Assembly: GCA_963651205.1 (NCBI GenBank)
Contig: CAVJPC010000118.1
Coordinates: 1,756-65,755 of the forward strand
Direction of reading: 5' to 3'
DNA: 64,000 bases
Source: Bacteroidaceae bacterium
GTDB lineage: Bacteria > Bacteroidota > Bacteroidia > Bacteroidales > Bacteroidaceae
Every line of letters starts with the position of its first letter. Positions within the stretch are counted from its first letter, which is position 1. Positions 19,500-43,376 of this stretch are shown here, in pieces. A program made the translations under genes and the position numbers. Under the pieces are notes generated by a model. The model was given only the letters and a program-made list of their open reading frames with translations. It had not been told where the DNA came from and did not search any database.

Positions 19500-19806
19500 A
19501 TAGGGGCAGGGTCTGCCCCATAGCCGTCAAGCTAAGGAACACATCACCTGTAGGGGCGGAATGCTTCCACCCGAATACATCCACAAATACACTTTTCTGT
19601 ATGTATTCGGGCAGGTAAACCCTCCTATCCGTCAAGTTAAATTTCTTGGCGTTAAAACAGGACTGCGATTCATAGTCGTTAGTAACTTCATCCCCTCTTG
19701 AGACTACTCTTTCTACACATCGCGTTACCATTTGCTGTAGGGGCAGGGTCTGCCTGCCCGAATACGTAAAGCGAACCGTTTTCGGGCGGGCAAACCCCGC
19801 CCTTAC
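19500..19806. mobile_element. REP cluster 2 with two nested IS231-like ends and a ~98-bp shared cargo segment
   Basis: Truncated REP 19500-19518, end 19519-19536, REP 19550-19572, truncated REP 19609-19623, end 19624-19641, REP doublet 19737-19759 and 19784-19806. Confidence 0.8.
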
Positions 19807-19954
19807 AGCAAAATAATAGCGCTACTGGAAATGTTAAATAAGATGTATACGCCCCTACTATTATATTCCGGCGTTTTCTTTCTTTTAAAATTTGCCTTCC
19901 TCTGCTTATGTATTATCTTTGTTGCCATAGAAAAAGGTAAATAAATGGACGTAT

Positions 19955-20815
19955 ATGAAAAAGCTATATGTATGGCTGCTGGGAATGACTTTAGGGATAA
20001 TACCCTGTATTGCTTCAGCACCTGAAAACGACAGTATAAAAGTGGAAAATCTGCTTCAAAAGGCATCCCGATTGCCTGTTGACAGTAGCAGAGTATTGTT
20101 TTTTGCCCAAAATCTATTAGGCGTTCCCTATGTAGCGAATACATTGGACGAAACGGAAGAAGAAACCCTGATAGTACATTTGGACAAGGTGGATTGCACT
20201 ACATTCGTGGAAACAGTGCTTGCATTGAGTATCGCTGACAAAGAGGGGAAAAGTGATTTTGGAAGCTATAAAAAGGCGTTGCAATACATCCGTTATCGGG
20301 ATGGAAAGCAGAATGGCTATATCTCACGTTTGCATTACTTCAGTGATTGGATTAAGGATAATGAACAGAAAGGAATTGTGCATGAGCGTACAGGAGAACT
20401 CAGGCTTGCCACATCACAAGTATTGAATCTGGATTTTATGTCCACACATACCGACAGCTATCGCCAATTGAAAAATAATCCCTCGCTGATATTCCAAATG
20501 ACGGATATAGAGGGAAAATGGAAGAATGTTTCTATCTCTTATATTCCTAAAGCTTGTTTGGATGCTTCTCCTAAGGAATTAGGCATAAAGAATGGAGACA
20601 TCATAGCGATAACCACCCATATAAAAGGTTTGGATGTGGTACATACAGGATTTGCCTGTTGGGTGAACGGCAAATTGCACCTGCTACACGCTTCATCTGT
20701 CATGAAGAAAGTGATTCTGGATCCACAGACTCTATTTGATTACTCTAAAAATAAAAAAGCCCACACAGGCGTGCGGGTTATTTCTTTTTCTTTTTCGAGG
20801 AACTTTTCTTTATAG
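19955..20815 (+). CDS. DUF1460 / AmiA-type NlpC/P60 N-acetylmuramoyl-L-alanine amidase-like protein
   Basis: [38 protein letters not shown]. Confidence 0.85.
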
Positions 20816-21509
20816 GGGGGACATCTTCTTTTGGTGGGAATGTTGGGACACACTTCATGAGATAAAGAATCTTCTTTTGCCGTTTAAACATATAATTGCT
20901 AGGCTTACCCGAATTGAATTTGCGGGGGTTGGGAAGGCTGGCTGCAATTAGTGCACATTCTCCGGGTGTCAGTTTGCCTGCATCCTTGTGAAAGTGTTCC
21001 CGGGCTACAGCTTCCGCACCATAGATGCCGTTTCCCATTTCTATAGAGTTCAGATAGACTTCCATAATCCGTTCCTTACTCCAGAATAATTCGATTAAAG
21101 TTGTGAAATAGACTTCAAGTCCTTTTCTGGTCCAGGAAGAGGCAGGCCACAGAAAAACATTTTTGGCCGTCTGTTGACTGATTGTACTCGCTCCTCGCGG
21201 GCGTTTCCTGCTTTTGTTTTCCTCCGCTGCTTTTTCTATTTCTTTGAAGTCAAATCCATTGTGCTCTGCAAAACGATTGTCTTCAGAGGCAATGACAGCC
21301 ATGGGCAGGTGGCGGGATATGTCCTCTTGGGGTATCCAAGTATGCTTCCACTTTATATCTTTACCATGAATAATCTGTTGGGTAGTTCGGATAAACATCA
21401 GTGGAGTAAAATAAACCGGAATGAAACGTAGTGCGATAACCGCGAGAATAGAAGAACCAAAGAAAAGGATCAGCAGATTTCGGATGAGTTTTAAAATCTT
21501 CTTTTTCAT
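20778..21509 (-). CDS. mtgA: Monofunctional peptidoglycan transglycosylase
   Basis: [43 protein letters not shown]. Confidence 0.95.
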
Positions 21510-21584
21510 GTTTGTGTACTAAAATCACCATAGGAATAAATTTATTCCTATGGTGATAGAATACTATCTAGACTATTGCTAGGG

Positions 21585-22307
21585 TTATTTCAGTGTACCT
21601 GCTTCAGCCTGCTGAATCATTTTCTGGCTGGCATACATATATACTTCCACACGGCGATTCTGTTGGCGTCCTTCGGCTGTATCGTTGTTACCGATAGGAT
21701 CTGCCTGGCCCAAGCCTTCTACAGATTTAATCTGAGAGTTACCCACCCCACAGCTCAGCAAATAACTTGCTACACTCTGTGCACGTTCCTGTGACAGATT
21801 AAGGTTTTTCTGGATGCTTTGTTCAGCAGTGCTGTTTCTCCATCCTTGATTGTCAGTATAGCCATAGATAGATACATCCATGTCTCTGTTCTGATTCAAT
21901 ACGTTGTTGGCGAATTTGCTTAAAGCTGATTTAGCTTGCGGGCTCAATGCTGCATTTCCGGTATTGAAGAGGATACCGGAGTCGAAAGTAACTTTTACAG
22001 CCTGAAGGCCGTTGTTATCCGTTACCTGTTCCACCTGAGCACCTTGGATTTGGGCGGCTTCTGCGGCTGCCTTATCCATTTTCTTACCAATCAGCACACC
22101 GGCACCCGTACCAACTGCTGCACCGATAGCTGCACCGATAGCGGCACCTTTACCATGTCCGGCTATACCACCGATAATTGCTCCCAGAGCTGCGCCGCCG
22201 CCACCACCGATCAAGCCGCCTTTAGCGGTATTATTCATGTTACCACATCCACTGAATACTAATGTAGCACTCAGCAATAAAGCCATAATTTTACTCTTTT
22301 TCATAAT
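21585..22307 (-). CDS. OmpA-family lipoprotein with glycine zipper
   Basis: Lipobox FSGC, Gly-zipper, GYTD, LSQERA, NRRVE; start codon uncertain among nearby Mets. Confidence 0.9.
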   Translation of the reverse strand: MMKKSKIMALLLSATLVFSGCGNMNNTAKGGLIGGGGGAALGAIIGGIAGHGKGAAIGAAIGAAVGTGAGVLIGKKMDKAAAEAAQIQGAQVEQVTDNNGLQAVKVTFDSGILFNTGNAALSPQAKSALSKFANNVLNQNRDMDVSIYGYTDNQGWRNSTAEQSIQKNLNLSQERAQSVASYLLSCGVGNSQIKSVEGLGQADPIGNNDTAEGRQQNRRVEVYMYASQKMIQQAEAGTLK

Positions 22308-22352
22308 CATGTTCATTTTAATATATTAATGACTAAATTCAAAAAATGTTCA

Positions 22353-23696: not shown

Positions 23697-23842
23697 TCGT
23701 TGTTAACAGATAAATTGCCTGCAAAGGTAGAAATTTATTTCAAAAGGTCTGAATGTTCCATAAAAAAGACCTTGGGATTTCTTTAAAAGATAAAATTCTT
23801 TTTCAGAAATTCCAAGGCCTTTATGCTAATAGAAGTCGTTGG

Positions 23843-27177: not shown

Positions 27178-28119
27178 TTACTTTTTTGCATCTTCTATAA
27201 CATCGTCCAAAGTTATGCCCAATACATCACAAAGAATGGCTTGGCGCGCATAAAGTCCGTTTTGTGCCTGCTGGAAATAGTAAGCTTTCGGGTTCTCGTC
27301 CACATCATAAGCTATTTCATTGACGCGGGGTAGCGGGTGCAGGATACGCAAATTGGGACGGGTATGTTCCAGCATCTTATTCCTTAATATATATACGTCC
27401 TTCACTCGTTCATACTCCATCAGGTCGGTGAAACGCTCACGTTGTACACGGGTCATGTAAAGAATGTCGGCATCTGCAATGGTTTCTTCGTTGAAGTCAG
27501 TATATTCTTTATATTTGATGTGATGCTCCTTGCAGTATATTTTATATTCTTCGGGCATTTTCAGTTCTTCGGGAGCAACGAAATGGAAAGTAGGATTGAA
27601 GTGGCGCATGGCCATCAGCAGAGAATGAACGGTACGTCCATATTTCAAATCACCCACCAGATAGATATTCAGATTTTCGAGTGTTCCCTGTGTTTTGTAT
27701 ATGGAATAGAGGTCTAGCATGGTTTGTGACGGATGCTGGTTGGCTCCGTCTCCGGCATTGACTATGGGCACCGGGGCAACTTCACTGGCATATCTTGCAG
27801 CACCTTCCAGAAAATGACGCATCACGATGATATCGGCATAATTGCTTACCATCATAATGGTATCTTTCAATGTTTCTCCTTTTGAGGAACTGGTTACTTT
27901 GGGATCGGTGAATCCGATAACACGCGCCCCCAATCTGTTTGCTGCTGTTTCAAAACTGAGTCTTGTACGGGTGGAGGGCTCAAAGAATAGGGTAGCAACC
28001 ACTTTGCCGTCCAGAATTTTACGGTTAGGCTTCTTTTCAAACTCTTTTGCCATCTCCAAGAGATAGAGGATTTTCTCTTTCGAGTGTTCGGCAATAGTAA
28101 CTAAACTTCTATTTTCCAT
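27178..28119 (-). CDS. pyrB: Aspartate carbamoyltransferase catalytic subunit
   Basis: [32 protein letters not shown]. Confidence 0.98.
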
Positions 28120-28279
28120 ATGGGTTTGTATTTATAATTACAACTTATACGGAGCGTAAAGGTATGAAAAAAAAATAAATGAGCGAAGATTTAAAAGATA
28201 TTTCGTTGAACTTTGTTAGAAACACATTCTATCTCAAAGTTTTTCCTTACTTTTGCACCATTAATTACTAGATAACGAC

Positions 28280-30607
28280 ATGAGGAAGAAATTTATATAT
28301 GTGCTTTGGGCTCTTGTAGTAGGCGTGCTGTTAGTTATAGCGTTCATATTCACTGCAATAGCGGAGGGATGGATTGGATATGTACCACCTATTGAAGAAT
28401 TAGAAAATCCGAATTTAAAGTTTGCAACCGAGATTATATCCGATGATGGCAAAATGCTGGGCACTTGGTCGCTTAGTAAGGAGAACCGTGTGTTTGTGGG
28501 CTATGACCAGCTTTCACCCAATGTCATTAAAGCATTGATTGCTACGGAAGATGAGCGTTTCAAAGATCATTCCGGTATTGATGCCCGCGCCTTTATTCGT
28601 GCGCTGGTGAAACGTGGTGTGATGATGCAGAAGAATGCCGGTGGAGGTAGTACCATAACCCAGCAGTTGGCAAAACAATTCTATTCACCTACGGCGGATA
28701 ATGTGATGGAACGGTTGTTGCAGAAACCTATTGAATGGGTGATCGCCGTTCAGTTGGAACGCTATTATACAAAAGAAGAGATTCTGACCATGTACCTTAA
28801 TAAGTTTGACTTCCTGAATAATGCGGTCGGTATCAAGACAGCTGCCAATACTTATTTCTCTAAGGAGCCGAAAGATCTGGCCATCGAGGAAGCAGCTACC
28901 TTGGTAGGTATGTGCAAGAATCCGTCACTTTATAATCCGAAACGGTTTAACGAGCGGTCACGCGGACGCCGTAATGTGGTGCTTGACCAGATGCGAAAGG
29001 CAGGATACCTGACTGATGCGGAAGCCGATTCATTAAAGGCATTACCATTGGTACTGAAGTATCGCCGCGTAGACCATAAAGAAGGTTTGGCAACTTACTT
29101 CCGTGAATATTTGCGTGGTGTAATGACCGCCAAGGAACCGAAGAAGAGCGACTACCGTGGATGGCAGATGCAGAAATATTATGAGGATTCACTGGCATGG
29201 AAGACTAATCCGCTTTTCGGCTGGTGTGCCAAGAATAAGAAAAAAGACGGTACGAACTATAATATCTATACAGATGGCTTGAAGATTTATACCACCATCG
29301 ACTCACGTATGCAGAAATATGCTGAAGAAGCGGTTTATGAACATGTGGCACAATACCTCCAACCTCGTTTCTTCAAGGAAAAACTGAAAAAGAAAACGGC
29401 TCCGTTTACCAATCAGCTCACCGAAGAAGAGGTAAATTCTATCATGACCAGAGCCATGAAACAGACCGACCGATATCGCACCATGAAAGAGGCAGGATGC
29501 TCGGAAGCGGAAATAAAGAAGGCGTTCAATACTAAATATGAAATGTCCGTATTTTCATACGAGGGCGAAAAGGATACCATTATGACTCCTATGGATTCTC
29601 TGAAATATTATAAGTTCTTCCTGAGAGCAGGTTTCATGTCTATGGACCCGTTGACCGGCCATGTGAAGGCTTATGTAGGTGGCCCTAACTATAATTATTT
29701 CCAGTATGATATGGCAATGGTGGGTCGCCGGCAGGTAGGTTCTACCATTAAACCTTATGTATATACATTGGCAATGGAGAACGGTTTCTCCCCCTGTGAC
29801 CAGGTTCGTCACGTGGAACAGACTTTGATAGATGAAAATGGCCGTCCGTGGTCACCACGTAACGCCAGTAAGAAGCGTTATGGAGAAATGGTAACTATCA
29901 AATGGGGGCTGGCTAATTCTGATAACTGGGTAACAGCTTATCTGATGGGAAAACTTAGTCCGTATGCTTTGGTTCGTCTGATTCACTCGTTTGGTGTACA
30001 GAATAAACAAATAGATCCGGTTGTCTCACTTTGTCTGGGGCCTTGTGAGATCTCTGTAGGAGAGATGGTCAGCGCTTATTCGGCATTTGCCAACCGGGGG
30101 ATACGTACAGCGCCGGTATTTGTAACCCGTATTGAAGATAATGAAGGAAATGTATTGGCGAATTTCACTCCTCAAATGGATGAGGTAATCAGTGAAACCA
30201 GTGCTTACAAGATGTTGGTCATGCTGCGTGCAGTAATCAATGAAGGTACCGGTGGCCGTGTGCGCCGTCTGTATGGCATTACTGCCGATATGGGTGGCAA
30301 GACAGGTACGACTAACCGCAACTCTGACGGATGGTTCATGGGATTTACTCCGTCCTTGGTTTCCGGTGTTTGGGTAGGCGGTGAAGAACGTGATATTCAC
30401 TTTGATACGATGGTAGACGGGCAGGGTGCTGCTATGGCTCTTCCCATTTGGGGGCTTTATATGCAGAAAGTTTATAAAGACAAGAGTTTGGGATACTCTC
30501 AGGACGAGAGATTCAATATTCCCGATGACTTTGATCCTTGTAAGGATACCTTAATAGATGATGTTTCGGTGGAAGAAACCGGAGGATTAGATAACATATT
30601 TGAATAA
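28280..30607 (+). CDS. Class A penicillin-binding protein (PBP1A)
   Basis: EDERF, GGSTITQQLAK transglycosylase; GSTIKP, SDN, GKTGT transpeptidase motifs. Confidence 0.95.
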   Translation: MRKKFIYVLWALVVGVLLVIAFIFTAIAEGWIGYVPPIEELENPNLKFATEIISDDGKMLGTWSLSKENRVFVGYDQLSPNVIKALIATEDERFKDHSGIDARAFIRALVKRGVMMQKNAGGGSTITQQLAKQFYSPTADNVMERLLQKPIEWVIAVQLERYYTKEEILTMYLNKFDFLNNAVGIKTAANTYFSKEPKDLAIEEAATLVGMCKNPSLYNPKRFNERSRGRRNVVLDQMRKAGYLTDAEADSLKALPLVLKYRRVDHKEGLATYFREYLRGVMTAKEPKKSDYRGWQMQKYYEDSLAWKTNPLFGWCAKNKKKDGTNYNIYTDGLKIYTTIDSRMQKYAEEAVYEHVAQYLQPRFFKEKLKKKTAPFTNQLTEEEVNSIMTRAMKQTDRYRTMKEAGCSEAEIKKAFNTKYEMSVFSYEGEKDTIMTPMDSLKYYKFFLRAGFMSMDPLTGHVKAYVGGPNYNYFQYDMAMVGRRQVGSTIKPYVYTLAMENGFSPCDQVRHVEQTLIDENGRPWSPRNASKKRYGEMVTIKWGLANSDNWVTAYLMGKLSPYALVRLIHSFGVQNKQIDPVVSLCLGPCEISVGEMVSAYSAFANRGIRTAPVFVTRIEDNEGNVLANFTPQMDEVISETSAYKMLVMLRAVINEGTGGRVRRLYGITADMGGKTGTTNRNSDGWFMGFTPSLVSGVWVGGEERDIHFDTMVDGQGAAMALPIWGLYMQKVYKDKSLGYSQDERFNIPDDFDPCKDTLIDDVSVEETGGLDNIFE

Positions 30608-30622
30608 TTGGTAGATCTAAAT

Positions 30623-30661
30623 AAAAAAGCCTGTTTGCAAGAAAGTAAACAGGCTTTTTTT
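30623..30661. terminator. Rho-independent terminator after PBP1A
   Basis: AAAAAAGCCTGTTTGC-AAGAAA-GTAAACAGGCTTTTTT. Confidence 0.75.
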
Positions 30662-30702
30662 GTTCCTGTTCCCTTATAACCCATTCCTTTTCTCACCCCA
30701 CT

Positions 30703-30861
30703 ATAGAGGCGGAGTTTGCCCCATCGTCTGACAGTTATGGGGGCGCTCACCCGAATACATTCTGAAAAGTGTATTTGTAGATGTATTCGGGCGACCGGAC
30801 GTCGCACCTACAGTAGATGTATTCTTTAGCCTGACGGTTATGCGATGTAATCCACCCCTAT
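30703..30861. mobile_element. REP cluster 3: inverted copy of the nested REP/IS231-like-end architecture with collapsed inner element
   Basis: Truncated REP 30703-30721, collapsed ends 30722-30739, REP 30789-30811, end 30825-30842 (minus), truncated REP 30843-30861. Confidence 0.7.
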
Positions 30862-31023
30862 GGTGGACAGCAAACACACATAGTAAATATTTTATATAAA
30901 AAGAAAGAAACCCCTTGCTTTTTCATTGAAAAATGCTATATTTACGAAAAGTAAATCTTTACTTGATAAAGATAGGAGGTAATTATGGATAGAGATATAA
31001 CTCTGTATCAGATAACTAACATC

Positions 31024-31812: not shown

Positions 31813-33295
31813 AAACCTGATTTGTCGGAATGGTAATGGCAAAATTAGTGCCTTTACCTTCTATAGAGGTTACGATAATTTCTCCCTGCATATGCTCTAT
31901 GATAGTTTTGCAGATAGAAAGTCCCAAACCGGCGCCCGGCTTGAATGAATCTACCTTGTAAAAGCGGTCGAATATATGTTCAAGTTTCTCTTTCGGCATG
32001 CCTATGCCTGTATCTTTTACATATATTTCTATTGTACCGTTGCAAGGTGCTTTGCATCCAAGTGTGATGCTGCCATATATGGTAAATTTAACGGCATTAT
32101 TTATCAAGTTGTTAATCACCTGTTTTAAACGGGTGGCATCGATCATTATTTCAGTATCTTTTTCCGGTAGTTGCAATTTGAACTCTATCTTTTGAGGTAT
32201 ATTTAATAACTGGCTTTGATAAATTTCCGATAGAATATGATTGAGCCATTGTTTTTGCTCCTTGAATTCAATAGAATTGGATTCTATTTTTGACATGTCA
32301 ATGATATCTGAAATCAATACCAGCAGCTGTTCGCAGTTCTTGTTGATGATGGAGACAAATTCTCTGCCTTCCGCACCACCCATTTCTATTTCTCCGCTGG
32401 CAAGCAGATTCGAGAAACCTACAATTGCATTGAGGGGAGTCCGGATTTCATGGCTCATATTGGCAAGAAACGCACTTTTCAATTTATCGCTTTGTTCTGC
32501 CTTGTCACGGGCAACCATCAGTTTTTCTTCTGCATTCTTATGCTCCTGTATGCTTTGGCAGGCCCCGATAATTCTATAAGGAGTGCCTTCTATTTGTTCC
32601 AGATATAATGACTGTACTTCAAACCACTCCCAAGTGCCGTCATTGTGTCTCAGCCTGTAAGCAAAAGCTTCGGTATTTAGATTTCCGGCTATCTGATTGG
32701 TCAGGGCGTTCATCAGTATATCCCGGTCGTCAGGATGCAGGCAGGCTGCAAATTCTTCTTCGGTCAGCGTATAGTCTTTGGTAGGTATATTAAAATGTTT
32801 GAACCAGCGTGCATCGATAATCATTTTCCTCTTTTCCATATCATAAAACCAGGGATAAATTTTCGTCAGGCTGAGTGCCATGTTTATGATATGCTGCTGG
32901 GTTAGTTCGCCTTCTATATTACGGAACGAAAGAACCAGCTGAGAGAGTTTCTTCTTTGTGAATACGCTGGCGATTCGTCCTTCGGCAATAAAGCGTATGT
33001 TTCGTAATTCACTTTTAATGAATGTACCTTTAGGAAAGTCGATGATTTTCTCTTCATGCTTTAGCTCTTCGATAAGCTCAGGAATAAGATTTTGATGGTT
33101 TTGTAAGATGGATATTATTTCGGATAGTTTTTTTCCTTTAAGTTCCATACTTTCCAAATTCAATTCATGGACAGCCTCATCGTTAATGCGCTCAATCGTA
33201 CCGTCTGCATCCATAAATATAAGGGCGGACGGCAAAATATTTAAGATCTGTTTGGATAATACTAACTGTCCTTTTATATAACTCATATTTTCCAT
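31805..33295 (-). CDS. PAS-domain sensor histidine kinase
   Basis: LHPDD PAS, FLANMSHEIRTPLNAI H-box, NLINNAVKF, DTGIG, GAGLGLSI. Confidence 0.93.
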   Translation of the reverse strand: MENMSYIKGQLVLSKQILNILPSALIFMDADGTIERINDEAVHELNLESMELKGKKLSEIISILQNHQNLIPELIEELKHEEKIIDFPKGTFIKSELRNIRFIAEGRIASVFTKKKLSQLVLSFRNIEGELTQQHIINMALSLTKIYPWFYDMEKRKMIIDARWFKHFNIPTKDYTLTEEEFAACLHPDDRDILMNALTNQIAGNLNTEAFAYRLRHNDGTWEWFEVQSLYLEQIEGTPYRIIGACQSIQEHKNAEEKLMVARDKAEQSDKLKSAFLANMSHEIRTPLNAIVGFSNLLASGEIEMGGAEGREFVSIINKNCEQLLVLISDIIDMSKIESNSIEFKEQKQWLNHILSEIYQSQLLNIPQKIEFKLQLPEKDTEIMIDATRLKQVINNLINNAVKFTIYGSITLGCKAPCNGTIEIYVKDTGIGMPKEKLEHIFDRFYKVDSFKPGAGLGLSICKTIIEHMQGEIIVTSIEGKGTNFAITIPTNQVST

Positions 33296-33378
33296 GCTTT
33301 TTGTTTTGATGTGTTCTTATTTTCTAAATCGAAGAATTGCCTGTCGTTGGGGATTGTATTTCTGTATTGTGTCCCTTC

Positions 33379-34302
33379 TTATTCTATCAGATTGGGAAAG
33401 ACTTTCAGAGTTCTGAATTTTCTAGGCGACATTCCGGTTATCCGTTTAAAAAAACGGGTGAATGAGGATGGAGTAGAAAAGTTCAGTTCATAACAAATCT
33501 CCTGAATAGTGAGGTTGGTAGAGATTAGTAGGGCTTTAGCCTCGATAATTACATAATTGTCAATCCAGTCACCAGCCAGTTTCCCGGTAACATCCCGGAT
33601 AATAGAAGACAAATACTTGGGGGTGAAACAAAGCTGCTCTGCATAAAAAGAAATGTCTCTTTCTTTGTAATGGTGGGTTTCAACCAGTTTCAGGAACCGC
33701 TTGAATATTTCTTCTTTATGCGGCAGGTTTTTCTTCTTTATTTCTATATGTTTTAACAGGAGCTGGCATACTTCATAAAATGTGGCTTGTATCAGATATT
33801 GTATGGTAAAGTTGCGAAACAGATTATTCTCTTCGCTGATTTTTTTATAGAGCAATACATGATATGTTTTCAGTAATTCTGTTTCTGTAATATTCAAATC
33901 GGCGCATGGATGATTTTTTAGAGGGATTAAAAGAGACATCATTTTATAAAAATTGTCTCGTGTATCAAAATACTTATTGGATATCATGATGAGATGCGCT
34001 CTGTAGTCTTCACTTACCTCGTTATATTTTATGATTTGGTTGGGCATCATCATTAATAATGTGTTTTCCTTAGTAGTATGTTTGATGGAATCTATTTCTA
34101 CTTCGGAAGTCCCAGCCAGGCAAAGTACGAATGAAGTGTATGTTGTTTTGTATGAATTATTATAAAACAAAGGAAAAGTATGTTGGTTGCGAATGAAATC
34201 TTTTCCAGTATTATTATAAATGATGAAATCATCGGAAAAGTAATCTGCATTGGCGAAGAAATCAGTATTCCAAATATCTATGTCGGTACGTCCTTTTATC
34301 AT
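33379..34302 (-). CDS. AraC-family transcriptional regulator
   Basis: FYAEQLCFTPKYLS, IQEICYELNFSTPSSFTRFFKRITGMSP. Confidence 0.92.
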   Translation of the reverse strand: MIKGRTDIDIWNTDFFANADYFSDDFIIYNNTGKDFIRNQHTFPLFYNNSYKTTYTSFVLCLAGTSEVEIDSIKHTTKENTLLMMMPNQIIKYNEVSEDYRAHLIMISNKYFDTRDNFYKMMSLLIPLKNHPCADLNITETELLKTYHVLLYKKISEENNLFRNFTIQYLIQATFYEVCQLLLKHIEIKKKNLPHKEEIFKRFLKLVETHHYKERDISFYAEQLCFTPKYLSSIIRDVTGKLAGDWIDNYVIIEAKALLISTNLTIQEICYELNFSTPSSFTRFFKRITGMSPRKFRTLKVFPNLIE

Positions 34303-34461
34303 TCTTGATGTTATTTGGTGTAAAAGAATAAATAAAATTAGTACGAAACAACCTCATTCGACTATTTGCTAATTATAAGCGACATTAAGGAAATTATTAG
34401 TTTCGTAATGTCCGGAAAACAAATTCCCCCGCCTTTTGGGTCGGCGGGGGAATGTTTTTTA

Positions 34462-35118
34462 TTATCCGTTTATCTTTTTATAATCGGCAAGGAACTTTTC
34501 TAAGCCTATATCTGTCAGTGGGTGGTTTAGCAGACCTTTAATAGCAGAGAGAGGACAAGTTACCACATCGGCTCCCACTTCGGCACATTGCAGTATATGT
34601 AAGGTGTTTCTGATGGAAGCGGCAAGCACTTCTGTCTTGTAGTCATAAGTCTGATACAACTCTACAATTTGTGCAACCAATCCTACGCCATCACTACAAA
34701 TATCATCCAGTCTGCCGACAAATGGAGATACGTAGGTAGCTCCTGCCTTTGCTGCAAGCAATGCTTGTCCGGCAGAGAAAACCAAGGTACAGTTAGTACG
34801 AATACCTTTGTTACTGAAGTATTTGATCGCTTTAATGCCGTTCTCTATGCAAGGCACTTTGACCACAATGTGCGGATTCAGGGCGGCCAGCTCTTCGCCT
34901 TCCCTGATCATGCCTTCGTAATCGGTAGCAATAACTTCGGCACTGACGTCCCCGTCTACTATATTACATATCTCAATGTAATGCTTATGCTGGTTCTCAA
35001 CTCCTTTAATGCCTTCTTTAGCCATTAAAGACGGATTGGTGGTCACACCATCCAGTACACCCAATGCGTTTGCCTCGCGGATTTGTTCCAAGTTGGCTGT
35101 GTCAATAAAGAATTTCAT
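34462..35118 (-). CDS. tal: Transaldolase (small FSA/TalC type)
   Basis: FFIDTAN, GVTTNPSL, Schiff-base VVKVP; Glu in VSAEV and Phe in SPFVGR favour transaldolase over fructose-6-phosphate aldolase. Confidence 0.85.
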   Translation of the reverse strand: MKFFIDTANLEQIREANALGVLDGVTTNPSLMAKEGIKGVENQHKHYIEICNIVDGDVSAEVIATDYEGMIREGEELAALNPHIVVKVPCIENGIKAIKYFSNKGIRTNCTLVFSAGQALLAAKAGATYVSPFVGRLDDICSDGVGLVAQIVELYQTYDYKTEVLAASIRNTLHILQCAEVGADVVTCPLSAIKGLLNHPLTDIGLEKFLADYKKING

Positions 35119-35216
35119 AACTTTTTTCTATTTAGATAATTAAAATCAGGTTAGCAACAGATTGCTAAGCTACTGATATTAACAATGATAAACAAGCAAA
35201 TGTTCCAATTTATCTG

Positions 35217-36326
35217 TTATGAATTCTTTTTGTAGCTGAATACCGCCCAACCATTCAGAAAGACCGCCATAAACAGCAAGGCAGCAAACTGCACCATCAG
35301 GTCACCGAATCCGCTTCCTTTCAGATAGACCATACGTGTCACCTGTATAAAGTACTTCAAGGGATTTACGATGGTAATGTCTTGCGCCCATTCGGGCATA
35401 CTGTTGATGGGAGTGAACAATCCGCTCATCAGCATAATGATAATCACAAAGAAGAACATGACAAACATGGCTTGCTGCATGGTTTGCGAATAATTGGAAA
35501 CCACCAGCCCCATGCCCGAGACAACGATAATGAACAGCAATGCAAAGAAATAGAGTAACCAGATATGCCCTGCCGGAACCAGACCATAGACCAGCCATGC
35601 CAGGATGATGCCCAAAGTAAGGATCAGCATACCGGCCACCCAGTAAGGAATAAGTTTGGCTATAATAAAAGTAAATTTGCTCACAGGAGTCACGTTTATC
35701 TGTTCGATGGTTCCAAATTCCTTTTCACCCACAATGTTGAGGGCGGGCAGAAACCCGCAGAGCATCATCAGCAATTGTGCCATCAGTGCCGGAACCATAA
35801 ATATCTTGTAATCCAGATAGGAGTTGAAACGTCCCTGGGTGGTTATTTCTATGGTAGGAGCAGGGGGAGTGGAACCGGAACCCGGAGGTCTGATTTCGGC
35901 AGCATAAGCATTGACTATATTACTGAGGTAGGAACTGCCCAAAGTTCCTTTTGTTCCGTTTACAGTATTGGCAGAGATCAGTACGTTGGCTACTCCATTC
36001 TTCAGTAAATCGCGTTCAAAGTGTGGTGGAATCTCCAGAATAAGATCGGCATCTCCTTTTTCAATACATTCCATCGCCTCCTCGTAACTGCTCGAAACAT
36101 CTACCAGATGGAAATACTCGGATGCACCCGCTTTCTGTACTAGGCGGGTGGAATAGGGGCTGCGGTCATTATCTACTACGCTGAGATTCATGTTCTTTAT
36201 TTCGAAATTAGCGGCCCAAGGTAACACTAACAGGATGACGCACGGAAACACAACCAGCAGTCTCGGCAACATCGGGTTGCGGAGCAATTGCTTGAATTCT
36301 TTTTCTAATAAATACTTTATCATCAT
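35217..36326 (-). CDS. ABC-2 type permease (YbhR-like)
   Basis: KEFKQLLR, EKEFGTIEQ, SGLFTPINSMPEW. Confidence 0.9.
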   Translation of the reverse strand: MMIKYLLEKEFKQLLRNPMLPRLLVVFPCVILLVLPWAANFEIKNMNLSVVDNDRSPYSTRLVQKAGASEYFHLVDVSSSYEEAMECIEKGDADLILEIPPHFERDLLKNGVANVLISANTVNGTKGTLGSSYLSNIVNAYAAEIRPPGSGSTPPAPTIEITTQGRFNSYLDYKIFMVPALMAQLLMMLCGFLPALNIVGEKEFGTIEQINVTPVSKFTFIIAKLIPYWVAGMLILTLGIILAWLVYGLVPAGHIWLLYFFALLFIIVVSGMGLVVSNYSQTMQQAMFVMFFFVIIIMLMSGLFTPINSMPEWAQDITIVNPLKYFIQVTRMVYLKGSGFGDLMVQFAALLFMAVFLNGWAVFSYKKNS

Positions 36327-36364
36327 ATTTCTGAACTTATTTTGTTTCTTTGTCCAATTTTGTA

Positions 36365-36470
36365 TCCCGGCTAAGGATAACGTCCACCCGTAGGGGCGGG
36401 GTTTGCCCGCCCGAATACAAAAAGCGAACCATTATCGGGCGGGCAAACCCCGCCCCTACAGGTGGCTATG
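36365..36470. repeat. REP cluster 4: REP doublet with remnants of both IS231-like ends
   Basis: REPs 36390-36412 and 36437-36459 are exact inverted copies; TCCCGGCTAAGG 36365-36376 and GGCTATG 36464-36470. Confidence 0.8.
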
Positions 36471-36492
36471 GTACAAAAAAGGATAAGAACGC

Positions 36493-37599
36493 TTATTCCA
36501 ATCGTTTTTTTAATTTCTTCAGACTGATTGCCATAAGGACAACGGCCATCAGTATAAGTATAATTATCTCTTCCTGTGCATAGCTGATACTCAGCCCTTC
36601 AATCATAATTCTTTTGACACCGATGATATACCACTTGGCAGGGATCATATTTGAAAAAAGTTGTAGGGGGAGCGGCATGTTTTCGATAGGGAATATCATA
36701 CCGGACAGCAACACAGTAGGCATCATCAATACCATACCAGAAAACAGCATAGCTTCTACCTGGGTACGAGCGATGGTAGAAACCAGCAATCCCAACAGCA
36801 AAGATACCAGAATGAAAATCCATGAAAGCAGAGCCAATGAGAAAAGACTGCCTGCTACCGGAACGTGCAATACATAAACGGATAGTAACAGAATGGTAAT
36901 CAGATTGACACATGAGAGCACAAAGTAAGGAACCGTTTTGGCTATAATCATCCATAACGGACGCACAGGAGATACCAGCAGAACTTCCATAGTGCCGGTT
37001 TCTTTCTCACGGACAATGGAGATAGAAGTCATCATGGCACATATCAGCATTAAAATCAGTCCCATTACTCCCGGAACAAAGTTGTAGGCACTCTGCATAC
37101 CGGGATTGTATAACAGCTTTACTTGGGGAATGATTTGTATGGGTATTTGTTGTTGCAGCATCAGGCTTTGCTGGTAGTCGGCAATGATATTGGATGCATA
37201 GGAAGTCAGTATGGTAGCATTGTTGGGATCGGTGGCATCGGCAATCAGCTGCACTTGGGCTTTCCCGGTGTGGCGCAGGTTATTATCGAAACCGGCTTCG
37301 AACACGACAATCAGGTCCGAACTGTTTTTCCGGAATGTTTCTTCTATTTCATCATTGCCATGCAATATCTTGTTGATATTGAAGTATTCGCTGGCATCCA
37401 GTTTGTCTATGATTTGCCGGGTGGCTACATCTTTCGACTCGTCCAGTACGGCTACTTTTACATTCTTTACTTCGGTGGTGATGGCAAAGCCGAAAAGAAT
37501 AATCTCCACAACAGGCATGCCCAGTAATATCAGCATGGTCCGGCGGTCCCGGAATATGTGATAAAATTCTTTTCGTACAAATGATATAAATTGCTTCAT
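36493..37599 (-). CDS. ABC-2 type permease (YbhS-like)
   Basis: KEFYHIFRDRR, VREKETGTMEVLLVSP, SGMIFPIENMP. Confidence 0.9.
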   Translation of the reverse strand: MKQFISFVRKEFYHIFRDRRTMLILLGMPVVEIILFGFAITTEVKNVKVAVLDESKDVATRQIIDKLDASEYFNINKILHGNDEIEETFRKNSSDLIVVFEAGFDNNLRHTGKAQVQLIADATDPNNATILTSYASNIIADYQQSLMLQQQIPIQIIPQVKLLYNPGMQSAYNFVPGVMGLILMLICAMMTSISIVREKETGTMEVLLVSPVRPLWMIIAKTVPYFVLSCVNLITILLLSVYVLHVPVAGSLFSLALLSWIFILVSLLLGLLVSTIARTQVEAMLFSGMVLMMPTVLLSGMIFPIENMPLPLQLFSNMIPAKWYIIGVKRIMIEGLSISYAQEEIIILILMAVVLMAISLKKLKKRLE

Positions 37600-37710
37600 T
37601 CTCTTTTTATCTGTTTGTTTTTAATTTAAGTTCCTTAAATGGTCATTGCGATCCTCCACCTTTTAAAGCTGCTCTTTCTACAACTCTTTTTCATATTTTT
37701 ACAGCACTGT

Positions 37711-37955
37711 CATTTCGCTTTCGTCCACTGTAGGGGCGCATTGAATGCGCCCGAACCATCGGTCACGACCTTGGGAGTAATACATCCACAAATGCACTTT
37801 TCCTAGTGTTATCGGGCGGATTCAATCCGCCCCTACAGCGAAATGAGAGCGTTATTGGAAATGGTAACGCGATGTATAGAAAGAGTAGCTCAAGAGGGGA
37901 TGAAGTTACCACCGACTATGAATCGCAGTCCTGTTTTAACGCTAAAAATGTTAAC
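37711..37955. repeat. REP cluster 5: REP doublet plus ~97-bp cargo segment
   Basis: REPs 37730-37752 and 37814-37836; 37859-37955 is a reverse-complement match to 19636-19733. Confidence 0.8.
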
Positions 37956-37996
37956 GCAATGCAGCGTAATGGCTGCTACTGACCGGATCCCGGCTT

Positions 37997-39463
37997 TCAA
38001 CTCCTGACCGCCTTGCGTGCCAACTGCCGGAATACTTCGTCCATATCTTTAGCCTGAAACTGCTCTTTCAGGCGTTGGGGAGTGTCCAGAGCCTCTATTT
38101 TTCCATCCACCATCATCGAGATCCGGTTACAATATTCGGCTTCATCCATGTAGTGGGTAGTGACAAAGATGGTAATTCCCCGTTCAGCAGCCTGATAGAT
38201 CAGTTCCCAGAACTGACGACGTGTAGCGGGATCTACCCCTCCTGTCGGTTCGTCCAGAAACACAATCTTCGGTTCATGGAAGATGGCTACCGAAAAAGCC
38301 AGCTTCTGCTTCCATCCCAAAGGCAGTGAACGGACCAAAGTGTCTTTTTCGTGCAGAAATCCCAGTCGATCCAATACTTGGTCTGTTTTTACGGCTATCT
38401 CTTCATCACTCATTCCATAAATTCCTGCATACAGGCGGATGTTCTCCCATACCTTCAAATCCTCGTAGAGAGAAAACTTCTGGCTCATATAACCGATGTT
38501 CCTCTTGACCAGTTCGTATTGTGTGGAAATATCGAATCCTGCCACTCTACCTTTTCCACTTGTTGGTTGTGACAAACCGCACAACATACGCATGGCAGTG
38601 GTCTTTCCTGCTCCGTTTGCACCCAGAAAGCCGAAGATCTCCCCCCGTTTTACTTTGAACGAGATATGATCCACAGCGGTGAAACTGCCGAATCGTTTGG
38701 TCAGCCCTTCCACCTCAATGGCATATTGGTCTGTGGCCTGCGGCTCATTGAAAGACAAGCCTTCGGGAGAAAGAATATCTCTGAACCGCTGCAAGATCCG
38801 GTCCGGCGTATCAATGCCCTGAATCTCTCCTTCGCGGATAAATGCGATGCGGTCACAGCATTTCATTTCATTCAGATAAGGAGTTGCTGCAATGATGGTG
38901 ATGCCTTCCTGCTTTAGTTTGAGCAACATGTCCCAAAATTCCTTTCTGGATACAGGGTCCACTCCTGTGGTGGGTTCGTCCAGAAACAAAATGGCAGGTT
39001 TGTGAATCAGTGCGCAACTCAGAGCCAGTTTCTGCTTCATGCCACCGGACAGTTTTCCGGCACGCCGGTGCTTGAAGGGTTCTATCTGCTGGTAGATATC
39101 TTTTACCAATGCGTAGTTCTCCCGGATGGTGGTATTGAAAAGTGTGGCAAAGAAAGTAAGGTTCTCTTCTACAGACAAATCTTGGTACAAGGAGAAGCGC
39201 CCCGGCATATATCCTGCCTGCCGGCGTATTTCCTTGTAATCCTTCACTACATCCTGTCCGCATACTTCTGCGTTGCCTTTATCGGCCAGCACCAACGTGG
39301 TGAGAATGCGGAAAAGGGTAGTCTTTCCTGCGCCGTCAGGCCCGATGAGCCCGAAGATTTCTCCCGGCTTCACCTCAAAGCTTATGTTTTTCAGTGCCTG
39401 TACTTCCCCATAGCTTTTGCTGACTCCTTTGACAGAAACAATAGTATCCATTTTATTATCCAT
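37997..39463 (-). CDS. ABC ATPase with two nucleotide-binding domains (YbhF-like)
   Basis: GPDGAGKTT and GANGAGKTT Walker A; LSGGMKQK; two LDEPT. Confidence 0.93.
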   Translation of the reverse strand: MDNKMDTIVSVKGVSKSYGEVQALKNISFEVKPGEIFGLIGPDGAGKTTLFRILTTLVLADKGNAEVCGQDVVKDYKEIRRQAGYMPGRFSLYQDLSVEENLTFFATLFNTTIRENYALVKDIYQQIEPFKHRRAGKLSGGMKQKLALSCALIHKPAILFLDEPTTGVDPVSRKEFWDMLLKLKQEGITIIAATPYLNEMKCCDRIAFIREGEIQGIDTPDRILQRFRDILSPEGLSFNEPQATDQYAIEVEGLTKRFGSFTAVDHISFKVKRGEIFGFLGANGAGKTTAMRMLCGLSQPTSGKGRVAGFDISTQYELVKRNIGYMSQKFSLYEDLKVWENIRLYAGIYGMSDEEIAVKTDQVLDRLGFLHEKDTLVRSLPLGWKQKLAFSVAIFHEPKIVFLDEPTGGVDPATRRQFWELIYQAAERGITIFVTTHYMDEAEYCNRISMMVDGKIEALDTPQRLKEQFQAKDMDEVFRQLARKAVRS

Positions 39464-39493
39464 TAACTGATCAAATTATTTTTCTTGTTCGCT

Positions 39494-39791
39494 GTAGGAA
39501 CGGAATGCTTCTCATAGCCGTCCGGCTAAGATATAAATCACGCTTCCGTCCACTGTAGGGGCGCATTCAATGCGCCCGATAACACTTCGAAAAGTGTATT
39601 TGTGGATGCATAACTCCCAAGGTCGTGGCCGTTGGTTCGGGCGGAAGCATTCCGCCCCTACGGTGAACGAGAACGCCATTTACCACCTTCGCTTGACAAC
39701 TATGTCTGGTTATCGTCCACTGTAGGGGCGGGGTTTGCCCGCCCGAATACACAAAGTAAACCGTTTTCGGGCAGGCAATCCCTGCCCCTAC
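39494..39791. mobile_element. REP cluster 6: 192-bp IS231-like MITE (39513-39704) carrying a REP doublet, plus a second doublet
   Basis: Truncated REP 39494-39512; ends CATAGCCGTCCGGCTAAG and CTTCGCTTGACAACTATG; REPs 39555-39577, 39639-39661, 39722-39744, 39769-39791. Confidence 0.8.
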
Positions 39792-39830
39792 AGCAAAAGA
39801 TAAGATAGTTACTTTGAACTTTTGGCCCGT

Positions 39831-40730
39831 CTATTCTTTTTTCATTTCACCATACATGCCGATCTTGATATATCCGTCATTTTTGACAGCTATCTTTACG
39901 GCATATACCAGATTGGCACGTTCATCCCGTGTCTGGATGTTTTTGGGCGTAAACTCCGATTTGTCCGAGATCCACGTGATAGTCCCCTCATATTCACGGT
40001 GGTCATCTTCTCCCAGATCTGAAAAGACCTTCACTTTATCTCCTAATTTCATCTCAGACAATTGATCGGCAGTGATGTAGGCACGTAAAAACAGACGTTG
40101 TACATCTGCCACTTTGAATAAAGGTTTTCCCTGAGTAGCCAATTCTCCGGTTTCGGTGTATTTTGCCAATACTGTTCCATGAATAGGACTGGTAATATGG
40201 CACTTGCGGAGCTGGTCATCCAGTTGGGCTACCTGTATCTCGTAAGCAGAACTTTCTTCCGTGACGCTCGCGTTCCCTCGTTGTAGAGTGGAAACCTGTG
40301 CTTCCAGCTGCTTTTTCAATACGGCAATCTGAGAATCAATATCATCTACCTGCTTCCGGGTGGCTGCATTCTCTTTCAGCAGGTTCTCCGTGCGTCTTCT
40401 TTCATATTCAGCCTTGCTGATTTGTTCTTTCGTAGCGGCTATCTGCTTGTTGATGTCCATACTTTTATTGGCGACAGCTTTTCCGCTGGCCAGCAACTGC
40501 ATCTTTTTCAGATAGAGTTGCAAGGTGTCTATGTACCCTACTTCTTCACCAGCCTTCAATAATTGCCCTTCTTCCACATTAAACTGCATGATCTTGCCAT
40601 TGGCTTCCGAAGACACAATCACTTCGGTAGCTTCGAATGTACCCGATGCATCATAATCGCCTTTTCTGTTTCCGCAGGAGGATAAGCCCAGCAGAATGGC
40701 GGCGAACAGGAGATATTTACTTGTTCTCAT
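39831..40730 (-). CDS. HlyD-family membrane fusion lipoprotein
   Basis: Lipobox LSSC, SGTFEATEV, SEFTPKNIQT...LVYAVK. Confidence 0.92.
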   Translation of the reverse strand: MRTSKYLLFAAILLGLSSCGNRKGDYDASGTFEATEVIVSSEANGKIMQFNVEEGQLLKAGEEVGYIDTLQLYLKKMQLLASGKAVANKSMDINKQIAATKEQISKAEYERRRTENLLKENAATRKQVDDIDSQIAVLKKQLEAQVSTLQRGNASVTEESSAYEIQVAQLDDQLRKCHITSPIHGTVLAKYTETGELATQGKPLFKVADVQRLFLRAYITADQLSEMKLGDKVKVFSDLGEDDHREYEGTITWISDKSEFTPKNIQTRDERANLVYAVKIAVKNDGYIKIGMYGEMKKE

Positions 40731-42015
40731 ATTGATTGGTTGTATATTTTAATTCATAAATAGCTGATAATAACTGAATCTCATGCAGAATCTTGTCCTG
40801 TTTGGCAAGATCCTCGGCAGTCACCTCGCGAAGCATTTCCGTGACGGTCAGTGTTCCGTTGGCAACTTTTGCCTGGGCAGATTTCCGGATGTTGTTGCGC
40901 AGGCTGATAATCTCGTCATCGTTCTTCATCAGTTCTGCCAGTTTCTTTATTTCACTGTTGTTTTGGGTGACTTCCAGATGAGTGTTGAACAGGAAAGTTT
41001 CTTTCTGTACATTCACATCTTGCTGATTCAGTGTCAGTTGACGGGATTCGTTCTTGCGTGTATATAAATTGCCGAAGTTCCAGGAAAGACGTACTCCTGC
41101 AACATAATAAGTTGAAAATTCGTTCTTCAGCATATTCAGCCCCGGATTGCCGTAAGCTCCTTGTACAAACAGACCTAACTGGGGAAGGTTTTTGGCGGCA
41201 AGTTGTTTGCGCCGGGCTTCCAGTTGCAGGTCCTGGGCGGCAAAAAGATCAAGTTCCGGACGTCGGATTAATTCCGCAGAGTAAGTTCCATCTATATATA
41301 ATAAGGTATTCACATCCGGCTTCTTCAGTGACTCCCCAGTTAATGGAGTGGGGTGGTTAATCATTATTTTCAGCATCTCGCTGTAAGCGCGATGTGTGGC
41401 TTCCAGTGTATGGCGCTGCTGTATGTTGTTCAATTGCTCCACCTTTACGGCATCCAAATCGGCTTGGTTGGCGGTGCCGTTTTTTACATAGGCTTTTACA
41501 TTATCGTAATTCCGTTGCAATTCTTCCTGCATGGCCCCGTTTTGCCCCAACTGCTCTTCCAGCAGCAATATGCCAAAGAAAAGCTGGTTCACCCGTTCAT
41601 TGATGGCATACATATCCACTTCCAGCTTTTGCTTGTCAACTTCGGAAGAAGCACGGGTTACTTCTTTCCGGGCATGGATGTTCCCGCCATCCCACACCAC
41701 CTGATCCAGTTGCAGCATGGCCTGATACTGGTCTTTGCGCATACCCCGGATGTCGAGTTCGGGCAGGTCTACGGGAATTTCCGTCACATCCGATTGATAG
41801 CTGGCCTTGGCGGACAATGAAAATTGTGGCAGATACCCCTTGTTGGCGTTAGAAATATTATATTCTTGCGTCTTTTCAATTAGCCCGTACCGTTTGATCA
41901 GCGGATAATAGGCCTGGGCTTGCTGCTGACATTCTTCCAGCGTGAGTTCCTGTGCTTTTAAAAAGACAGGAGCGACACCGAGAAGGAATGCTGTGAGAAT
42001 GAATAACCTTTTCAT
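40717..42015 (-). CDS. TolC-family outer-membrane efflux protein
   Basis: Signal peptide, YLPQFSLS, VWDGG, LPQLGLF repeats; operon context. Confidence 0.9.
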   Translation of the reverse strand: MKRLFILTAFLLGVAPVFLKAQELTLEECQQQAQAYYPLIKRYGLIEKTQEYNISNANKGYLPQFSLSAKASYQSDVTEIPVDLPELDIRGMRKDQYQAMLQLDQVVWDGGNIHARKEVTRASSEVDKQKLEVDMYAINERVNQLFFGILLLEEQLGQNGAMQEELQRNYDNVKAYVKNGTANQADLDAVKVEQLNNIQQRHTLEATHRAYSEMLKIMINHPTPLTGESLKKPDVNTLLYIDGTYSAELIRRPELDLFAAQDLQLEARRKQLAAKNLPQLGLFVQGAYGNPGLNMLKNEFSTYYVAGVRLSWNFGNLYTRKNESRQLTLNQQDVNVQKETFLFNTHLEVTQNNSEIKKLAELMKNDDEIISLRNNIRKSAQAKVANGTLTVTEMLREVTAEDLAKQDKILHEIQLLSAIYELKYTTNQYENK

Positions 42016-42629
42016 TTTCTTAATCTGCTTAATATGATTTCTACATTTTCTTGCTTTCTGCGTTCCATGTACTGGTGATATTCTTCCCCTTTCTCTTCCA
42101 GAAACAAATGGATCAACGGATTGGCCACGAAGACAAAGATATTGAGAGATACCACGCTTATCATTAAATCCTCCGCTTTGACAGGCCGTACCGTTCCCCT
42201 GGCAATTTCTTCTTGTAATGAACGGTCAAGCAGTTTCACCGCCAGCAGAAAATTAGGAAACAGGGTTTTGCGGCAAACTTCTTTTCCACTTTCATTGACT
42301 AAAATTTCCCTGTATATAAATAAAGGTAAATCGGGGTTGGCCGCTAAAAGGTCAAAGTGTGCTTCAATGCTGCATTTCACTTTTTCCAGAAAAGGCAGTG
42401 ACTCGTCTACACGAGATAGAAAGGTGTCTGCCAGTTGCCTGGCCTTCTCTTCAAATACTTTGTTGAACAGATTCTCTTTTGTACGGAAATAATAATGCAA
42501 CATGGCATGGGTAACTCCTGCTTCCTTTGCTATTTCTGTGGTCTTGCTTCCGGAGAATCCTTTCTTAAGAAATTCTTTCTCAGCAGCTTTCAGTATGGCT
42601 TGTTCTGTATTACTTGATTCTTCTTTCAT
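42012..42629 (-). CDS. TetR/AcrR-family regulator
   Basis: ILKAAEKEFLKKGF...EIAKEAGVTHAMLHYYFRTKENLF. Confidence 0.93.
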   Translation of the reverse strand: MKEESSNTEQAILKAAEKEFLKKGFSGSKTTEIAKEAGVTHAMLHYYFRTKENLFNKVFEEKARQLADTFLSRVDESLPFLEKVKCSIEAHFDLLAANPDLPLFIYREILVNESGKEVCRKTLFPNFLLAVKLLDRSLQEEIARGTVRPVKAEDLMISVVSLNIFVFVANPLIHLFLEEKGEEYHQYMERRKQENVEIILSRLRK

Positions 42630-42769
42630 GTTATCATATATGTTTAACAGGATTGTTAGTAAACGCAAATGTATAGGGAATAAATGAAAATTGCAAATAG
42701 ATAGGAGGAAAATTTTGTTTCGGGCTTGTTATTAAGTGTTTTTATATGGAAGGTTAGTCCTTTCTGTAT

Positions 42770-42920
42770 GGAAGACTAAGCACTTTTATCCTTTTATGTG
42801 CTATCTCCCAAGGTTTGGGAGTTAACTCCAAGCAGTTTGGAGTTAACTCTATAAGGCTTGGAGATAACTCCAAAATACTATGGAGATAGAACATGACCTG
42901 ATAAAAAGTCTTAGTCTTCC
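42770..42920. repeat. 151-bp imperfect palindrome containing a 21-bp-period array of GGAGWTAACTCC
   Basis: Ends GGAAGACTAAG (42770) and CTTAGTCTTCC (42910); units at 42797, 42818, 42839, 42860, 42882. Confidence 0.7.
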
Positions 42921-43066
42921 TGATAAAAAGCCTTGGATATATAATAGAAAAGGATTAGATGGCCGGAAGAAGATTGAAAAAGTATGGGGTGAAGAGATTG
43001 AAAGAGCATCCTGTCTATCCTTTCTACCAATCTCATTTAACACTTCCGATAGGGCTGTCAATTACT

Positions 43067-43376
43067 GTAGGAGCGGATTGAACCCCGCAGCCGTCAAGCT
43101 AAGGGACACATCCACTGTAGGGGCGACGTCCGGTCGCCTGAATGCATCCGCAAATCCACCTTTCAGTGTGTTGTCGGGCGGATTCAATCCCATAGCCGTC
43201 AAGCTAAGGGATTAATGGCGTTCCCGTCCACCGTAGGGGCGCATTGAATGCGCCCGATAACACTCCGAAAAGTATATTTGTGGATGCATTCGGGCGGAAG
43301 CATTCCGCCCCTACAGTGGGTGGAAACGCCATTTGCCGGCTTAACCTGACGGCTATGGGGCAAACCCCGCCCCTAC
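43067..43376. mobile_element. REP cluster 7: nested IS231-like MITEs; inner 167-bp element 43191-43357 carries a REP doublet
   Basis: Truncated REP 43067-43085, end 43086-43105, REP 43117-43139, truncated REP 43176-43190, end 43191-43210, REPs 43233-43255 and 43292-43314, end 43340-43357 (minus), truncated REP 43358-43376. Confidence 0.85.

Follow-up and report, generated by a model that had tools for sequence, protein, structure and literature searches.

Insertion sequences (ISs) of the IS231 subgroup, IS4 family, carry the end signature CAT-------AA--TAA, generate direct repeats of 10–12 bp and are almost confined to Firmicutes, according to the accessible sections of PMC2266710; for IS231A, the target GGG(N5)CCC and an 11-bp duplication are listed (PMC2577343 Table 1). 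Targeting of REP (repetitive extragenic palindromic) sequences by an IS4-family element is already published, as the available part of PMC1525189 documents for ISRm22. [quoted passage not shown] Here we describe a 64,000-nt stretch of a Bacteroidaceae genome (the window; contig CAVJPC010000118.1, positions 1,756–65,755), in which an 18-bp motif joins halves of GTAG-tagged REPs at one exact position. The motif is very probably the terminal inverted repeat of non-autonomous IS231-type MITEs of the IS4 family. We refer to MITEs with this 18-bp end as MITE-A and to a second group, with IS50-type ends, as MITE-B.

In the genome assembly holding the window (G000; 5.88 Mb, 95% complete, 7% contamination), 181 end copies with ≤3 mismatches to the 18-mer were found on 44 contigs, against 7 copies in a shuffled-genome control from a slightly different scan. 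The ends form 64 inward-facing pairs, 49 of which fall in four size classes: about 156 bp (14 elements), 167 bp (17), 192 bp (8) and 217 bp (10, with one copy counted twice, contig C81 duplicating C112). Elements in the window and in G000 measure 78–319 bp, and none contains a DDE transposase with the YREK motif in a single open reading frame (ORF). Their non-coding content, paired inverted ends, discrete sizes and stable long-hairpin fold identify them as MITEs; the copy at 43191–43357, for example, folds into one long hairpin (z −8.8). Column counts over the 181 ends agree with the IS231-subgroup signature, position 12 being A in 120 and G in 58. Identity to the named IS231A record is 13/18, which bears out the 13–14 given in the initial annotation. 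The smallest possible remnant of the family is a lone 18-bp end between two REP centres, with no element body (C83:13066–13083).

Tabulating the flanks genome-wide placed 88/181 ends directly against a REP half in a single register (register 0; a flank was called clean within 4 mismatches of the 19-base REP half). Offsets −6 to −1 held at most one end, and 0/5000 random sites qualified, so that the flanks are clearly not random. Among the other 93 ends, 47 align with gaps to a REP half above the 99th percentile of chance. At least seven loop types are joined to the end in the same register, and both loops and element interiors vary between junctions, which argues against a single fusion copied as a block.

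The 11-bp duplications anticipated from IS231A are also recovered: across the 49 size-class elements, identity between the two flanks peaks at 11 bp (mean 0.51, against 0.37 for flanks compared across elements). Longer duplications were sought over lengths of 4–26 bp in the same elements, and only 11 stands out. The loops are near-palindromic, so direct and inverted duplications are poorly separable. Measured from the arm, the junction lies 11 bases away in 55 of the 75 G000 ends with a recognisable arm.

Fresher insertions were found in G398, another genome of the same genus. It contains a 208-bp MITE that lies, flanked by perfect 11-bp duplications, in REP doublets left intact in all other respects (L183, L184), and 15/28 MITE ends examined there are clean. 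Two further elements are collapsed, high-copy sequences with unassembled bodies; 21 of their copies at contig ends were taken out of roughly 30 sitting near contig ends, and 19 of these adjoin clean REP halves. The remaining two contig ends represent one insertion, their contigs being adjacent in four relatives. The same 13-mer stands on both sides of it and corresponds to the middle of a REP variant whose arms are 13 bases apart; at the orthologous site in G000 there is no REP.

Complete IS4 elements of 1448–1809 bp, with near-identical ends and 9–11 bp duplications, occur in other Bacteroidota, including Bacteroidales. An IS4 DDE transposase bounded by such ends, as sought from the initial annotation, thus exists outside G000 and was not found within it. 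The accompanying proposal, that an IS4/IS231-group transposase targets REPs, gains support with an amendment as to the ends: in this genome, the motifs terminate MITEs rather than a transposase-bearing IS. A transposase homologue is present in 17/401 genomes of the order. All three proteins tested pass the NF033592 (IS4) cut-off, with the YREK motif present. In a quick tree (25 rows, containing no IS4Sa, IS4 or ISPepr1 reference), the autonomous relatives form one clade with IS231A and IS231F (support of 96 in the Shimodaira–Hasegawa-like approximate likelihood ratio test), leaving ISH5 and ISApu2 outside; the Bacteroidota enzymes are 26–33% identical to IS231A. One end of the collapsed G398 elements resembles the complete ISs L222, L223 and L082 (87–89% over 32–38 nt).

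Duplications in other genomes were collected in a set chosen for having a duplication and including several copies per genome; 35/40 are 10–11 bp long, four are 9 bp and one is 19 bp (L038). Of the 39 that measure ≤12 bp, 23 lie on a palindrome axis (≥6/9 pairs; 4% by chance), as do 8/14 among full-size elements. Individual loci show further arrangements. A complete IS of the same clade sits in a 9-bp tandem repeat, not a hairpin, with a 10-bp duplication (L082:2160–2200). Two different same-clade MITEs stand side by side in one hairpin with a common duplicated target (L017; G043 C31:6400–7600), and other copies in that genome have inverted rather than direct flanks.

What the transposase reads at the REP can be approached through the spacing of the cuts. 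Besides the 13-bp duplication in G398, both ends of the G000 element C122:72468–72684 lie 10 bases from the arm, in a REP variant with a 10-base centre. These spacings suggest that the cuts follow the GGGC/GCCC arms of the REP, by analogy with IS186, which is placed in the IS231 subgroup. REP variants are used unevenly. The GGAATGCTTCC variant accounts for 4/88 flanks against 55/213 free REPs (p 5e-6) and GACGTCCGGTC for 0/88, and the three variants commonest in MITE-A cargo (94/127 vs. 93/259 elsewhere) include the two least-hit ones. Late amplification of those variants would fit the uneven use equally well.

A variant of this explanation, which we consider possible but rather doubtful, is that the transposase reads an extruded hairpin or cruciform shape instead of the arm sequence. 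Unrelated palindromes are hit on their axis across Bacteroidota (the 23/39 above), and the cut spacing tracks the stem (10, 11 and 13 nt). However, equally good stems are used very unevenly, as the GGAATGCTTCC and GACGTCCGGTC counts illustrate, though timing could cause this, and some targets do not fold (L082, L227, L240). Dimeric transposases favour palindromic duplex targets, and such an enzyme would prefer these sites anyway.

An ordinary IS231A-type sequence preference for GGG(N5)CCC, with REPs merely containing that sequence, is improbable. The target and 11-bp duplication listed for IS231A in PMC2577343 match it, as do two of the nine REP loop types and 3/11 eleven-base duplications in other genomes. 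Yet only 22/88 clean flanks are of that type, and 646/707 such genomic sites lie outside REPs, the other 61 being REPs, so GGG(N5)CCC, named as the IS231A target in the initial annotation, fails as the explanation of targeting. With the arms included, GGGC-N11-GCCC is nearly REP-specific (361/395 in REPs in G000), and the 13-bp duplication was made at a 13-nt centre.

Least credible of all is the block-wise spread of a junction first made between the 18-mer and REP halves by recombination or by a REP-associated tyrosine transposase (RAYT, an HUH nuclease). In its favour, the REPs resemble RAYT substrates in their GTAG tag and doublet arrangement, and copies do become joined to one another, either in vivo or during assembly, as the divergence of C81 and C112 inside a 217-bp element indicates. 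Against it, the ends form inverted-repeat pairs around discrete cargo, accompanied by direct duplications; IS4 transposase genes are bounded by these ends as well; at least seven loop types share one register; no RAYT was found in G000; and the fresh G398 insertions with perfect duplications, unless misassembled, largely refute it. The contigs in question, C81:53–48574 and C112:1894–50416, are 99.98% identical over 48.5 kb; they represent a duplicated assembly, with a chimeric or recombined join where they diverge.

The REPs themselves are GTAG-tagged and arranged as inverted doublets, a REPIN-like form. No RAYT was found in G000, and none associated with the same REPs among the six genomes searched. 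The only Y1 match in G000 is a tnpA of IS200/IS605 type, accompanied by a long divergent ORF (C51:1–1816, L003); its 2.3-kb contig may be a bin contaminant. Two RAYT-like Y1 genes in the same-genus genomes G030 and G398 (L175:1100–2300 and L176:1100–2200) are flanked by their own, different palindromic repeats. In the plasmid collection, the REP arm matched only Phocaeicola records; many of these, 30–175 kb long and filed as plasmids (OY725976–OY726056), look like pieces of a draft chromosome. The public runs in which the sequences occur are gut metagenomes, and the host is probably a gut Bacteroidales species.

The cargo of the MITEs, absent from the initial annotation, consists of the same repeats that serve as targets. 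In the 156-, 167- and 192-bp MITE-A classes this cargo is an inverted doublet of GTAG REPs, so that each jump of such a MITE-A would plant new landing sites and make nests. Of 386 intact REPs in G000, 127 directly follow an A end and 46 a B end, and 213 follow neither (chance about 0.3%); since 173/386 stand directly behind an IS4-type end, part of the REP population has been moved by DDE transposases. MITE-B, likewise missing from the initial annotation, is non-coding, measures 155–220 bp and carries REP doublets. Its end (window 19704–19722) fits the IS50-subgroup signature CW------Y---CA-A--W, and perfect 8–9 bp duplications occur in 4/15 G398 pairs and 2/11 G000 pairs, no other length being perfect. 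Complete NF033590 elements in the order (Bacteroidales) have ends 14–17/19 alike to those of MITE-B, and its end as an exact 16-mer was not found in 350 other genomes of the order.

MITE-B has its own preferred target in a second hairpin family, H, distinct from the GTAG-class REPs: 22/52 MITE-B ends lie on the axis of H (0.7% by chance). In turn, 26/38 intact H hairpins stand just inside an A end, as cargo of the 217-bp class. Seven B ends are in A-borne H, six A ends in B-borne REPs and nine A ends in A-borne REPs; 15/88 clean A ends lie in a REP carried by another MITE. It is conceivable, but we hold it only tentatively, that MITE-A and MITE-B, driven by different IS4-family transposases (IS231-type and IS50-type) and each carrying the other's target, form a self-renewing network that spreads REP doublets without a RAYT, with arm-read cuts and with MITE-A enriched for rarely hit REP variants as a sequence-based self-immunity. 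Several observations speak against such a network. Both MITEs also carry their own targets (L294), and the cross-carriage may therefore be a passive outcome of nesting and deletion. Intact REPs that lack a recognisable end are in the majority, and the 596 exact REPs of G398 contrast with A and B ends numbering only 67 and 43. Some other route, perhaps a since-lost RAYT, therefore probably spread the doublets first.

Within the window, the motif occurs 10 times at ≤3 mismatches, against 0.05 expected. The initial annotation had placed it at eight main junctions and a decayed one at 14824/5. Seven of the eight, together with 14824/5, have 0–3 mismatches; at 30721/2 the motif differs at 7/18 positions and is recognisable by position only. 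The REP half lies in the exact register described at all eight main junctions, with 0–3 mismatches (of 19) at seven and 5 at 30842/3. The flank at 14824/5 matches poorly (8 mismatches). We found a tenth end, not previously recorded, at 39687–39704; it is the partner of the end at 39513, and the sequence beside it, with 12 mismatches, is no REP centre. The match at 52710, inside the gene for prolyl-tRNA synthetase, looks like chance. Every junction is intergenic. Contigs from other public runs span 30721/2 and 39512/3 (run X2) and 43085/6 (run X4), so that these three are not assembly artefacts. All features are collected in Table 1.

Table 1. Coordinates of MITEs, their ends and REP units in the 64,000-nt window.
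Position	Strand	Feature	Details
14825–14842	+	end of IS231 type, 3 mismatches, from a decayed MITE-A of the 192-bp type	passenger REPs 14864–14887, 14947–14970; right end eroded near 15013
19500–19518	+	broken host REP, GTAG-side half finishing in central 11-mer	2/19 mismatches to REP library
19519–19623	+	left part of REP-carrying MITE-A	end 19519–19536; intact passenger REP 19550–19573; second passenger REP broken at 19623
19624–19703	+	left part of 217-bp-type MITE-A, inserted in passenger REP broken at 19623	carries hairpin H, cut at 19703
19704–19806	+	IS50-type MITE-B left end 19704–19722, inserted in H, then REP doublet	REPs 19737–19760, 19783–19806
30722–30842	.	decayed MITE-A, internally deleted, 121 bp, with a GTAG-side REP half on either side	one REP left, 30788–30811
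36390–36459	.	intact REP doublet, no recognisable end: unbroken target form	
37669–37888	.	complete IS50-type MITE-B, 220 bp	REP doublet 37730–37753 + 37813–37836; right flank is half of H
39513–39704	.	complete 192-bp MITE-A	REPs 39555–39578, 39638–39661; left flank REP half, right flank lost
43015–43424	.	decayed MITE-B, ends with 4 and 3 mismatches; hosts two MITE-A copies in REPs	three-level nest
43086–43190	+	left part of MITE-A in first REP of MITE-B 43015–43424	passenger REP 43117–43140 intact; second broken at 43190
43191–43357	.	complete 167-bp MITE-A	REPs 43233–43256, 43291–43314; both flanks REP halves, different loop type (5/11 identical)

The window contains two nests, one of A in A followed by B (19519–19806) and one of A in A in B (43015–43424). 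The gap orthologous to 30722–30842 is repeat-free in four same-genus genomes. An intact REP doublet (39722–39791) lies just after the MITE-A at 39513–39704, and the neighbouring genes abut in relatives. Two other features of the region were recorded. A separate inverted repeat with short tandem units stands at 42760–42930, upstream of a TetR gene, and occurs in two relatives as well. The PAS histidine-kinase gene at 31846–33376 is strain-variable: relatives, and contigs of 3/4 runs, either lack it or have it replaced.

Gene order around window positions 28000–47000 is kept in relatives, whose gaps have no repeat clusters among the alignments listed. The losses of duplications are therefore local, and long-range rearrangement or chimeric assembly at the window loci was rejected on the same grounds. 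Missing duplications usually result from recombination and adjacent deletion, according to the available parts of PMC11708052 and PMC1525189. Broken REP halves carry 11.5% substitutions (76/98 alignable) and the ends 11–12%, and the REP arms inside the same elements differ by 0.5–1.9%. Flank hypermutation was discarded, the substitution levels of halves and ends being alike. Indels are apparently commoner in flanks (2.6% vs. 0.24% per base), a difference inflated by G/C runs. GTAG-side halves outnumber the others 66:37 (p 0.006), as expected if doublet centres were deleted, although detection with the library may favour one side. The elements now appear to be inert in G000, with only the hairpins maintained.

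Several observations weigh against the reading of these elements as IS231-type MITEs that target REP axes. There are 46/181 ends without a recognisable REP flank, some of them chance matches, and a near-perfect duplication (≥10/11) is kept in just 6/49 G000 elements. The tracking of the arms is supported by two events only, one 13-bp duplication and one element in the 10-nt variant (C122). In other genomes, 16/39 duplications are not on a strong palindrome. A tblastn search with 3 and then 20 IS231-type proteins recovered no cognate transposase in G000, and a single query run against 108 genomes of the genus gave none either. At none of the window loci did an empty site come to light: the strains with an intact REP that the initial annotation had hoped for did not turn up, as relatives lack the whole repeat cluster and the four runs show no clean skip. 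Candidates for these missing pieces were also tried. The two PF01609 matches in G000 are without MITE-A ends; no transposase was established in viral contigs, where 22 matches look like chance, and none was found in the plasmid collection. Among at least 120 homologues listed, no usable host emerged. A joint at 43060–43340 in runs X1 and X2, considered as an empty site, matches another locus of the same repeat (C115).

Weighing both sides, we regard the overall picture of IS231-type MITEs targeting REP axes as highly likely. A cut-and-paste IS4-family transposase, presumably supplied in trans by a full IS now lost or unassembled in G000, would insert MITE-A at the axis of GTAG-class REP hairpins. 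It would cut next to the GGGC/GCCC arms, which it may read directly, so that the centre between them (11 bp here) becomes duplicated. The 217-bp MITE-A would supply H as the landing site of MITE-B, itself a carrier of REPs. Most duplications would afterwards be destroyed by deletions and by recombination between adjacent copies; ends and broken halves would drift, and intact REP arms would stay conserved, possibly through selection on intact hairpins.

If this scheme is correct, DDE transposases can take the place of RAYTs in multiplying REP doublets, which would blur the distinction between REPINs and MITEs. It would also extend the IS231 subgroup, with a strong intergenic target choice, to Bacteroidota. 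A duplication length that tracks the spacing of palindrome arms offers a direct test of IS4-family target choice, and the clade transposase is a candidate tool with which to insert DNA between genes of gut Bacteroidales. REP-targeting IS4 elements, MITEs and nesting each have precedent; the interest lies in two less certain parts, the targets that each MITE carries for the other and the cut spacing that tracks the arms. A literature search found no published REP-targeting IS4/IS231 MITEs in Bacteroides, although ISfinder, subscription papers and supplements may hold named elements.

Among known systems, MITE-A most resembles IS231A and IS231F, with the subgroup signature, 13/18 identity to both ends, the 11-bp duplication and the grouping of related Bacteroidota transposases with IS231A/F. 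It differs in that IS231 is reported almost exclusively from the Bacillus cereus group and IS231A targets GGG(N5)CCC, whereas MITE-A occurs in Bacteroidota and targets the REP axis. MIC231 cassettes, in the accessible text of PMC6199540, are likewise non-autonomous IS231 derivatives moved in trans, but their cargo is passenger genes instead of non-coding hairpin doublets. ISRm22 of Sinorhizobium meliloti shares the REP axis target (9/9 chromosomal copies) and has some copies with non-matching repeats, ascribed to recombination or adjacent deletion (available part of PMC1525189). It belongs to another subgroup of the IS4 family (IS4Sa), has 6-bp repeats and is autonomous, with no REP cargo or nesting described in that part. 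The closest precedent for the putative arm-reading is IS186 of E. coli, also of the IS4 family, which reads GGGG(N6/N7)CCCC, a palindromic frame rich in G and C, and whose duplicated core varies in length; this core is shorter, and the sections of PMC5009759 at hand report neither REP specificity nor MITEs. REPINs and their RAYTs share with this genome the GTAG-tagged inverted doublets and the better conservation of intact than of broken units (accessible text of PMC3116915), but in G000 no RAYT was found and 173/386 intact REPs stand behind an IS4-type end. Finally, MITE-B has the end signature and 8–9 bp duplication of the IS50/Tn5 subgroup (PMC2266710 Table 1, as far as available), and departs from it in being non-coding, 155–220 bp long, concentrated on the axis of one hairpin family and loaded with REP doublets.

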